Positions 30,547 to 43,090 of a stretch of DNA of 64,000 nt are shown here, one piece after another. The position numbers and the translations under genes were made by a program. Numbering within the stretch: the stretch's first letter is position 1; the number at the start of each line of letters is the position of its first letter. Below the pieces are notes generated by a model. The model saw only the letters and a program-made list of their open reading frames with translations. It was not told where the DNA came from and did no database searches. This DNA comes from Escherichia coli (GTDB lineage: Bacteria > Pseudomonadota > Gammaproteobacteria > Enterobacterales > Enterobacteriaceae): assembly GCF_009931435.1 (NCBI RefSeq), contig NZ_CP043414.1. One strand, written 5' to 3'.

Positions 30547-31404
30547 ATGATTTATCCTGATGAAGCAATGCTTTACGCACCGGTTGAATGGCACGACTGC
30601 TCCGAAGGTTTCGAGGACATTCGTTATGAAAAATCCACCGACGGTATCGCAAAAATCACCATTAATCGTCCGCAGGTGCGCAATGCCTTCCGTCCACTGA
30701 CGGTCAAAGAGATGATCCAGGCACTGGCAGATGCGCGTTATGACGACAACATCGGCGTGATCATTCTGACTGGTGCAGGCGATAAAGCGTTCTGCTCTGG
30801 TGGCGACCAGAAAGTGCGTGGCGATTACGGCGGCTATAAAGATGATTCCGGCGTACATCATCTGAATGTGCTGGACTTCCAGCGTCAGATCCGTACCTGT
30901 CCGAAACCGGTTGTCGCGATGGTAGCGGGTTACTCCATCGGCGGCGGTCACGTTCTGCACATGATGTGCGACCTGACCATCGCGGCGGAAAACGCCATCT
31001 TCGGTCAGACTGGCCCGAAAGTCGGTTCCTTCGATGGCGGCTGGGGCGCTTCCTATATGGCGCGCATTGTTGGGCAGAAAAAAGCGCGTGAAATCTGGTT
31101 CCTGTGCCGTCAGTACGACGCGAAACAAGCGCTGGATATGGGCCTTGTGAACACCGTGGTGCCGCTGGCAGATCTGGAAAAAGAAACCGTGCGTTGGTGC
31201 CGCGAAATGCTGCAAAACAGCCCGATGGCGCTGCGTTGCCTGAAAGCTGCGCTGAACGCTGACTGTGACGGTCAGGCGGGTCTGCAGGAACTGGCGGGCA
31301 ACGCCACCATGCTGTTCTACATGACGGAAGAAGGTCAGGAAGGTCGCAACGCCTTCAACCAGAAACGTCAGCCTGACTTCAGCAAATTTAAACGGAATCC
31401 GTAA
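30547..31404 (+). CDS. menB: 1,4-dihydroxy-2-naphthoyl-CoA synthase MenB (crotonase fold)
   Basis: 285 aa, enoyl-CoA hydratase/isomerase family. Confidence 0.9.
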
Positions 31405-32366
31405 TGCGTAGCGCGCAGGTATACCGCTGGCAGATCCCCATGGACGCGGGGGTGGTTCTGCGCGACAGGCGGTTAAAAACCCGCGACGGGCTATACGTTT
31501 GCCTGCGCGAGGGCGAGCGCGAAGGGTGGGGAGAGATCTCCCCACTGCCGGGCTTCAGTCAGGAAACCTGGGAAGAGGCGCAAAGTGCGCTGCTTGCCTG
31601 GGTAAATAACTGGCTGGCAGGCGATTGCGAATTACCGCAAATGCCTTCCGTCGCCTTTGGCGTAAGCTGTGCATTGGCTGAGCTGGCAGACACGTTACCA
31701 CAGGCGGCAAATTTCCGTGCTGCACCGTTGTGTAATGGTGATCCTGACGATCTGATCCTCAAACTTGCCGATATGCCAGGCGAGAAAGTGGCGAAGGTCA
31801 AAGTGGGATTGTACGAAGCGGTGCGCGACGGCATGGTGGTGAATCTGTTGCTGGAGGCCATTCCGGATCTGCATTTGCGTCTTGACGCGAATCGCGCCTG
31901 GACACCGCTGAAAGGCCAGCAGTTTGCCAAATACGTTAACCCGGATTATCGCCACCGCATCGCGTTTCTCGAAGAACCGTGCAAAACCCGCGAGGATTCC
32001 CGCGCCTTTGCCCGTGAAACGGGTATTGCCATTGCCTGGGATGAAAGCCTGCGTGAGCCGGATTTTGCCTTTGTGGCGGAAGAAGGCGTGCGAGCGGTGG
32101 TGATCAAACCCACGCTCACGGGCAGCCTGGAGAAAGTGCGCGAGCAGGTGCAGGCGGCGCACGTGCTGGGGCTGACGGCGGTGATCAGTTCATCTATTGA
32201 GTCGAGCTTAGGCTTAACGCAACTGGCGCGGATTGCCGCCTGGTTAACGCCAGACACTATCCCGGGGCTGGACACGCTGGATCTGATGCAGGCGCAGCAG
32301 GTTCGTCGCTGGCCGGGTAGCACGCTGCCTTTTGTCGACGTTGATGCACTGGAGCGGTTGTTATGA
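31404..32366 (+). CDS. menC: o-succinylbenzoate synthase MenC (enolase superfamily)
   Basis: 320 aa; start overlaps the menB stop by 1 nt. Confidence 0.9.
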
Positions 32367-33718
32367 TCTTCTCTGACTGGCCGTGGCGTCACTGGCGGCA
32401 AGTGCGGGGAGAAGCCATCGCCTTACGTCTCAATGATGAGCAACTCAACTGGCGCGAGCTTTGTGTTCACGTCGATGAATTAGCCTTAGGCTTTGCGGCG
32501 CAGGGCGTGGTTGAGGGCAGCGGCGTGATGTTGCGGGCGTGGAATACGCCGCAAACGCTGCTCTCCTGGCTGGCGCTACTGCAATGCGGGGCGCGGGTGT
32601 TGCCCGTGAACCCTCAGCTGCCGCAACCGTTGCTTGAAGAATTGCTGCCCAATCTAACGCTGCAATTTGCGCTGGTGCCGGAAGGGGAAAACACATTTTC
32701 GGCGTTAACGTCGCTGCACATTCAGCTGGTTGAAGGCGTACATGCTGCGGCGTGGCAGCCAACTCGTCTGTGCTCAATGACGTTGACCTCGGGTTCTACC
32801 GGGTTGCCGAAAGCCGCTGTCCATACTTATCAGGCCCATCTTGCCAGCGCCGAAGGGGTGTTATCGCTGATTCCGTTTGGCGATCACGATGACTGGTTGC
32901 TCTCTTTGCCGCTGTTTCACGTCTCCGGTCAGGGAATTATGTGGCGCTGGTTATACGCTGGTGCGCGGATGACGGTACGTGATAAACAGCCGTTGGATCA
33001 CATGCTGGCAGGCTGTACTCACGCATCGCTGGTGCCGACGCAGCTCTGGCGTTTGCTGGTTAACCGCAGTTCCGTTTCCCTGAAAGCAGTGTTGCTTGGC
33101 GGCGCGGCGATCCCGGTCGAGTTGACGGAACAGGCGCGCGAGCAGGGTATTCGTTGCTTTTGTGGCTATGGTCTGACCGAGTTTGCTTCCACGGTGTGTG
33201 CGAAAGAAGCCGACGGTCTGGCGGACGTCGGTTCGCCGCTGCCCGGTCGGGAAGTGAAAATCGTTAACGATGAAGTGTGGCTGCGGGCTGCCAGCATGGC
33301 AGAAGGTTACTGGCGTAACGGACAACTGGTGCCGCTGCTCAATGACGAAGGCTGGTACGCTACGCGCGATCGCGGCGAGATGCATAACGGTAAACTGACC
33401 ATTGTCGGGCGCTTAGATAATCTGTTCTTCAGTGGTGGCGAGGGTATTCAGCCGGAAGAGGTGGAGCGTGTAATTGCTGCACATCCTGCGGTTTTGCAGG
33501 TGTTTATCGTCCCCGTTGCGGACAAGGAGTTTGGTCATCGACCGGTAGCGGTGGTGGAGTATGACCATCAAAGCGTTGATCTCAGCGAATGGGTGAAAGA
33601 TAAGCTGGCCCGTTTTCAACAACCGGTGCGCTGGCTGACGCTTCCACCTGAACTGAAAAACGGTGGTATTAAAATTTCACGTCAGGCGCTAAAAGAGTGG
33701 GTGCAACGCCAGCAATAA
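32363..33718 (+). CDS. menE: o-succinylbenzoate-CoA ligase MenE (adenylate-forming)
   Basis: 451 aa; AMP-binding motif TSGSTGLPK. Confidence 0.9.
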
Positions 33719-33827
33719 TTAACCATCCGTTGCACTTCTCATTTCTGCCATTCCATTGCCGTTGATAAAGAGTTTATCTGTTAATCTGTAAATTGATGTG
33801 AAAACTCTTAGCAAACAGGATAATGCA

Positions 33828-34094
33828 ATGGAATGGCTGGTCAAAAAATCGTGCTGCGATAAACAAGATAACAGACATGTACTTATGCTCTGCGATGCTG
33901 GCGGCGCGATAAAAATGATCGCCGAAGTGAAGAGTGACTTCGCCGTGAAAGTGGGCGATTTACTCTCCCCTTTGCAGAATGCGCTTTACTGCATTAATCG
34001 TGAAAAGCTACATACGGTGAAAGTTCTCTCGGCATGCAGCTACAGCCCCGATGAGTGGGAACGGCAGTGTCAATCGGCTGAGAAAACTCAGTAA
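33828..34094 (+). CDS. pmrD: Signal transduction connector protein PmrD
   Basis: 88 aa from MEWLVKKS with AGGA RBS; the track ORF begins 10 codons upstream at a GTG. Confidence 0.8.
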
Positions 34095-34474
34095 CGTTGT
34101 TTTGTCGTGGGCAGGAAAATCAGCATCAACCCGCTCATAATACAGGCTACTCCCAGTAGTGCTTTCAGCGAAAAAGTCCCTTCCCAGCCGGGAAGTACCA
34201 TTGAAGCAATCCATACCAGCACATAACTCATACTGAGCAAGGCATAGGCTTTGCTTAGTGCAAGTTTATGTAGTGTTTTATACCAACAAAAAACGGAAAG
34301 CAGATAACCCAGCAGCCCGAGTAACAGTATCCGGGCATCCAGGCCAAAAGCTAACAGCGCCGCGATAAAATCCCATAAGTGCGTCATCGGCGGTAGATGA
34401 CTCGCCGCATAACCCAGGCTTAATTGCGCAGCTGAGGCAATAATGACGCTGAATAATCCCCACATCAGGCCCAT
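34088..34474 (-). CDS. arnF: Undecaprenyl-phosphate-aminoarabinose flippase subunit ArnF
   Basis: 128 aa small multi-TM protein from MGLMWGLFS; start overlaps the arnE stop. Confidence 0.85.
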
Positions 34475-41536: not shown

Positions 41537-41553
41537 ATTAACTTAACCTTAAG
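41537..41553 (-). promoter_or_regulatory. Candidate PmrA (BasR) box in the arnB/ais divergent region
   Basis: On the arn strand reads cttaag-gttaa-gttaat, a direct hexamer repeat with 5-nt spacer resembling YTTAAK-N5-YTTAAK; about 85-100 nt upstream of the arnB start. Confidence 0.4.
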
Positions 41554-42812: not shown

Positions 42813-43090
42813 AGGAGTATTCCTTATAAATAAAAAGAAACCATGAGAATACGGCAACTTAGAAATATGTGAAAGTGACAGTAATCTCTTTTGCGATGAT
42901 AACTGTACTTATTATTATTTTTGTGTGTATCGGTAAAGTGTGTTTATTTTTTCGGCGTTTAATTATTTAAGAAGTATTTAGTTACAATAAGTGACTAGAT
43001 CCCTTTTTTCGCTCATTGAATCCTCTGTGCCAGGCAGTACAATCCCGCAGCTTTGGGAATTTTGATTTATTGCTTGTGGGAGAGGGGAAA

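Follow-up and report, generated by a model that had tools for sequence, protein, structure and literature searches.

An octamer near-repeat upstream of pmrD in Escherichia coli probably lies by coincidence within the known PhoP-activated promoter

The intergenic region between menE and pmrD (33719-33827) was analysed within a stretch of 64,000 nucleotides of Escherichia coli DNA, called the window below. The genes menC and menE lie upstream of this region, and arnF, arnE and arnT are located downstream of pmrD on the minus strand. The earlier note had named the downstream gene pmrD, and this assignment was confirmed: the product belongs to PF11183 and is 94% identical to PmrD of E. coli K-12. 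In near-identical genomes, RefSeq has the gene begin at the ATG of 33828. The features to which the text refers are the following.

31404-32366, plus strand: menC.
32363-33718, plus strand: menE.
33759-33777, plus strand: PhoP box, a 19-mer read as C CGTTGA TAAAG AGTTTA T (CCGTTGATAAAGAGTTTAT), assigned from Harari 2010 Fig. S2 and from its matrix score.
33776-33791, plus strand: tandem octamers ATCTGTTA/ATCTGTAA, at about -24 to -9 from the predicted start.
33777-33788, plus strand: spacer TCTGTTAATCTG, 12 nt from the 3' half-site to the -10, the same distance as in 12 orthologues.
33789-33794, plus strand: predicted -10 hexamer TAAATT, which aligns with the Salmonella -10 TAACGT (Zwir 2012 Table 2).
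33800, plus strand: predicted transcription start G with a 28-nt leader, placed by carrying the S1-mapped start of the Salmonella promoter over through the alignment.
33817-33820, plus strand: Shine-Dalgarno AGGA, 7 nt upstream of the ATG, read from the sequence.
33828-34094, plus strand: pmrD coding sequence, 88 aa.
41537-41553, minus strand: near-perfect PmrA/BasR box CTTAAGGTTAAGTTAAT with 1 mismatch, upstream of arnB; the positive control of the PmrA scan.

The start region of pmrD, ATGCAATGGAATGG at 33823-33836, contains three ATGs in three frames, of which the second (33828) is the in-frame one, just as in K-12. This is the "start-site array" reported for pmrD of E. coli and Shigella (bioRxiv 10.1101/2021.07.26.453917). 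A search of Rfam gave no family match in 33500-34300 at E-values up to 1.

The segment 33772-33791, read off the window sequence, is GTTTATCTGTTAATCTGTAA. It contains the tandem octamer repeat to which the earlier note had drawn attention: the octamers at 33776-33783 and 33784-33791 are identical at 7/8 positions, and the pair starts 52 nt and ends 36 nt upstream of the pmrD ATG. The hexamer GTTTAT occupies 33772-33777 and overlaps the first octamer by 2 nt. This means that the presence of the repeat was borne out; its significance as a repeat was not. The 64-kb window has 26 positions, in 15 loci, where two adjoining octamers differ by no more than one base, and about 24 positions are expected from the base probabilities (64,000 x 3.8e-4). 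The octamers are thus not commoner than chance, as a tandem-repeat operator ought to be. Tandem Repeats Finder reported 33772-33793 with a period of 8, 2.8 copies and 85% matches at a score of 30, which is the minimum permitted, the default threshold being 50. First-order Markov simulations predict 1.1 lag-8 runs of this score in 64 kb, and such a run was present in 143 of the 200 simulations; if lags 4-12 are all counted, the expectation rises to about 10.6 runs in 64 kb. The prior for finding the repeat inside this 109-bp intergenic region is 0.2-1.8%, a value to be read with the post hoc choice of the site. The exact 16-mer made up of both octamers has no other copy within the 64-kb window. 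The near-repeat is real as sequence, yet it is not beyond chance and carries no statistical weight as a repeat.

The PhoP operator begins 17 bp upstream of the octamer pair. In Harari 2010 (Fig. S2, PMC2908699), the PhoP site of E. coli pmrD is given as CCGTTGAT and GAGTTTAT, with the three central bases omitted. With these bases filled in, CCGTTGAT-AAA-GAGTTTAT is the window sequence at 33759-33777. The two half-sites, CGTTGA (33760-33765) and AGTTTA (33771-33776), extend from about -40 to -24 relative to the predicted start and form a direct repeat of (T/G)GTTTA-like hexamers with a 5-nt gap, CGTTGA-TAAAG-AGTTTA. The reading of GTTTAT as a PhoP half-site in the earlier note was therefore correct, since this hexamer corresponds to the 3' half of the published box; by sequence, its partner is CGTTGA, 11 bp upstream. 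The octamer repeat itself does not qualify as the operator, because the box reaches upstream of GTTTAT; the octamers lie mainly over the spacer and run into the -10. More precisely, the pair covers the final base of the 3' half-site, the flanking T of the box, the spacer and nucleotides 1-3 of the -10 hexamer.

A PhoP position weight matrix was built from the 48 other sites of Harari 2010 Fig. S2, with both pmrD entries excluded. With this matrix, 33759-33777 scored 12.8 bits and ranked 6th of the 127,964 positions scored across the window. The runner-up site in the menE-pmrD intergenic region scored 2.8 bits, 10 bits below the box. The box is imperfect: 9/12 half-site positions fit (T/G)GTTTA, and its score lies below the training median of 16.2 bits, although it still exceeds that of 21% of the training sites.

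The matrix also picked out sites elsewhere in the window. Within the menE coding sequence, CGGTTTTGCAGGTGTTTAT (33489-33507, plus strand) gave 12.7 bits at 270 bp upstream of the pmrD box; this match is probably due to chance. In the nudI-yfaZ intergenic region, two adjacent PhoP-box-like 19-mers are found at 42944-42981 on the plus strand, TTATTTTTTCGGCGTTTAA with 12.8 bits and TTATTTAAGAAGTATTTAG with 15.2 bits, the latter being the top PhoP-matrix score in the window. The yfaZ ATG is at about 43092, and a good -10, TACAAT, is located at 42983-42988 downstream of the 19-mers, not at the 12-nt distance. In an Enterobacter study, YfaZ was among the most over-expressed envelope proteins in isolates exposed to colistin or CSA-13, most strongly in a colistin-resistant isolate without mgrB. 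These observations hint that yfaZ might be under PhoP control. It is also possible that the two 19-mers arise by chance, as the region is AT-rich.

The arrangement of the pmrD promoter was compared with that of its orthologues, which were collected by a genome scan based on PmrD alignment and comprise Escherichia spp., E. albertii, the Citrobacter amalonaticus-group, Salmonella enterica subsp. arizonae/diarizonae and Intestinirhabdus alba; Klebsiella pmrD was not recovered by that scan. The best matrix box lies at the same aligned column in 12/12 orthologous promoters, and the distance from the box to a TAnnnT hexamer is exactly 12 nt in all 12. No indel was found from the box to the -10 among these promoters. 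Among the columns invariant in the 12 upstream regions are TTG in the 5' half-site, GTTTA in the 3' half-site and, at the -10, T-TGTA. The -10 hexamer is TAAATT in Escherichia and TAACGT, TAACTT or TAGCGT in the other orthologues. TAAATT matches TATAAT at 4/6 positions, and its TAnnnT frame is kept in all orthologues.

The octamers did not follow this pattern. The two copies agree at 7/8 positions in E. coli and at 6/8 in E. albertii; the agreement drops to 4-5/8 in Citrobacter, to 3-4/8 in Salmonella, where the near-repeat is missing, and to 2/8 in Intestinirhabdus. The two octamers are not kept as a pair in orthologous promoters. The step from 6/8 to 7/8 corresponds to a single substitution at 33786, a position where E. 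coli has C, one Escherichia sp. has A, and E. albertii and most other genera have G. Judged from this comparison, the octamer repeat is a lineage-specific coincidence, neither a conserved element nor a duplication.

The promoter shows the features of architecture I, a layout that Zwir 2012 described in Salmonella and for which the 12-nt distance is diagnostic. A single box in direct orientation is placed at the -35 position, 12 nt (33776 to 33789) before the predicted -10, and there is no consensus -35 element. In the plus strand of 33600-34200, no sigma-70-type promoter with a -35 match was detected, which fits the expectation for an activator-dependent promoter. We infer the E. coli -10 hexamer, the start site and a class II mechanism, the first two by alignment with Salmonella. 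In Zwir 2012 (PMC3335776), Salmonella pmrD is assigned to architecture I: its box is CTATTGCCGTTTTGTTTAT, the -10 TAACGT follows after 12 nt, 5 nt separate this hexamer from +1, and the S1-mapped start gives a leader of 27 nt.

The Salmonella enterica promoter (Kato 2003; Zwir 2012) has the same aligned single direct box, 12 nt before a weak -10. Its box, CTATTGCCGTTTTGTTTA, aligns column for column with the E. coli box, the half-sites being TATTGC/TGTTTA in Salmonella and CGTTGA/AGTTTA here. The weak -10 is TAACGT there and TAAATT here, and the leader is of similar length, with one base more in E. coli. Salmonella has in addition a PmrA box giving feedback repression; none is detectable here. 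The architecture I promoters of mgtA, phoP, yrbL and slyB also carry the box over the -35, 12 nt from the -10, without a good -35, as observed here. Their boxes are near consensus, in contrast to the weaker box of pmrD.

It should be noted that a perfect 8-nt inverted repeat, AAGAGTTT/AAACTCTT (33768-33775 and 33802-33809), flanks the core promoter. Its upstream arm runs into the 3' PhoP half-site, and its downstream arm covers about +3 to +10. An RNA hairpin formed by these arms was considered and rejected: the upstream arm precedes the predicted start, and the arms are absent in E. albertii. This inverted repeat is probably a chance occurrence, as suggested by the absence of its arms in that species.

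Of 5,426 complete E. coli genomes, 3,825 (70%), K-12 among them, carry exactly the 86 bp found at 33745-33830, so that box, spacer, -10, leader and start codon are base-for-base those of K-12. The earlier note had expected the operator sequence of this strain to be informative. Since the promoter is the same as in K-12 and in 70% of the genomes, it holds no strain-specific information. In eight E. coli alleles taken from across the range of divergence, the box was variable only at 33769-33771 (AAAGAG or AATAGG). The spacer and -10 (33778-33794) showed 0/17 variable positions across the same alleles, compared with 19/73 (approximately 25%) in the flanking non-coding DNA. This is mild evidence for constraint on the core promoter, as expected, and the invariance of the spacer would leave room for an additional constraint on the spacer.

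Two main alleles of the pmrD box exist in E. coli: TAAAG-AGTTTA, present in this window and in K-12, and TAATA-GGTTTA. The latter was found exactly in 681 genomes, carries the consensus 3' half-site GGTTTA, which is also present in E. albertii, and scores 15.6 bits as against 12.8 bits. From its score, the TAATA-GGTTTA allele may confer stronger PhoP-dependent expression.

The coding sequence of pmrD in this window is an uncommon allele, unlike its promoter, which is the majority allele and shows no differences from K-12. Over 33690-34110 (421 bp), no more than 11 of 5,419 records reach 99% identity. Five of the 88 residues of PmrD differ from K-12 (N11D, S70C, K82Q, V83S and G85E), mostly in the C-terminal part. 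On this sequence evidence, the pmrD locus looks like a mosaic or recombinant.

The regulation of pmrD by PhoP is documented in the literature. Expression of E. coli pmrD is described as dependent on PhoP/PhoQ in PMC11429745 and, with reference to Winfield and Groisman 2004, in PMC3140997 and PMC2565834. K-12 is the strain of these statements, and the promoter analysed here does not differ from the K-12 promoter. Shigella flexneri without phoPQ expressed pmrD at 0.48 of the wild-type level, and PhoP dependence has also been reported in Salmonella and Klebsiella. The view in the earlier note that PhoP control of pmrD depends on the lineage is not in accord with these papers, which report the dependence in Salmonella, E. 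coli, Klebsiella and Shigella alike.

Taken together, the region is, with a probability of about 0.9, the E. coli pmrD promoter known to be activated by PhoP, and the similarity of the two octamers is incidental, without operator function. What was observed here is the sequence itself, where the box lies and how it scores, that the box is conserved and that the 12-nt distance is fixed; PhoP dependence is taken from the papers cited above. The promoter would operate as follows. At low Mg2+, PhoQ would phosphorylate PhoP, a dimer of which would bind the imperfect direct repeat CGTTGA-N5-AGTTTA (33760-33776) in place of a -35 element. PhoP would then recruit the sigma-70 RNA polymerase to the weak -10 TAAATT, 12 nt downstream, in a class II activation, and transcription would begin near G33800 with a leader of about 28 nt. 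The octamers would simply lie across the spacer and extend into the -10 hexamer.

Several other explanations of the octamers can be considered. It is very unlikely that the octamers, or the 8-bp-phased units GTTTAT, GTTAAT and GTAAAT, constitute a second PhoP site that extends the operator or represses through overlap with the -10. Such a site could be built on TGTTAA (33779-33784), which matches TGTTTA at 5/6 positions, and on the lag-8 self-match of 12/14 over 33772-33785; the unchanged spacer of the eight E. coli alleles would also be in line with it. However, the octamers have a period of 8 bp, whereas the half-sites of PhoP are spaced by 11 bp, as for dimers of the OmpR/PhoB family (about 11 bp). 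In addition, all 19-mer registers starting at 33760-33789, among them every one with half-sites on the octamers, score at or below -0.1 bits, compared with 12.8 bits for the box, and the middle unit varies, being GCTAAT, GCTACT, GTTGAT or AGCAAT in other genera.

There is similarly little probability that the octamers are the operator of another regulator, such as PmrA/BasR acting in feedback, a regulator recognizing an ArcA-like TGTTA half-site, or H-NS. PmrA binds and represses the Salmonella pmrD promoter, and GTTAAT resembles the PmrA half-site CTTAAT. The sequence TGTTAAT presumably resembles a putative half-site of ArcA. The search for PmrA boxes (YTTAAK-N5-YTTAAK, with up to 2 mismatches) nevertheless gave no match in 33719-33827, although the positive control upstream of arnB was recovered. 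The lack of a second copy of the 16-mer in the window and of conservation of the octamer repeat in the orthologues also speaks against such an operator, and according to Chen 2011 (PMC3140997) E. coli lacks this feedback by PmrA.

A further reading, which we regard as quite improbable, sees in the three GTWWAT units in 8-bp phase (33772, 33780 and 33788) a spacer element peculiar to Escherichia, by which the strength of the promoter or its PhoP-dependent kinetics would be tuned. The tuning might occur via contacts between spacer and sigma or via transient docking of an extra PhoP monomer. If true, this would explain why the spacer is invariant beside flanks that vary by about 25% across the E. 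coli alleles.

Finally, a small functionless duplication by slippage would fit the head-to-tail period of 8 bp with 2.8 copies, but it hardly deserves credence, because the length from box to -10 is constant, without an indel in the 12 promoters, and because 7/8 identity was reached from 6/8 by one substitution at 33786, which indicates a point change and not a duplication. A 6-bp insertion relative to Salmonella was also considered and discarded, since the stretch from box to -10 aligns without an indel.

The reading of this region as the PhoP-activated pmrD promoter has consequences for annotation and for the comparison of strains. The promoter and its PhoP box are already known and not new, and the annotation of the PhoP operator belongs at 33759-33777, not on the octamers. 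It is in the coding sequence of PmrD and in the two alleles of the PhoP box that strains differ at this locus, and the repeat has no part in these differences. The control that PhoP exerts on pmrD transcription is conserved; lineages differ in the effect of PmrD on PmrA/PmrB and in the feedback by PmrA. As the promoter is of the standard K-12 type, the transcriptional wiring from PhoPQ to PmrD is expected to be as in K-12.
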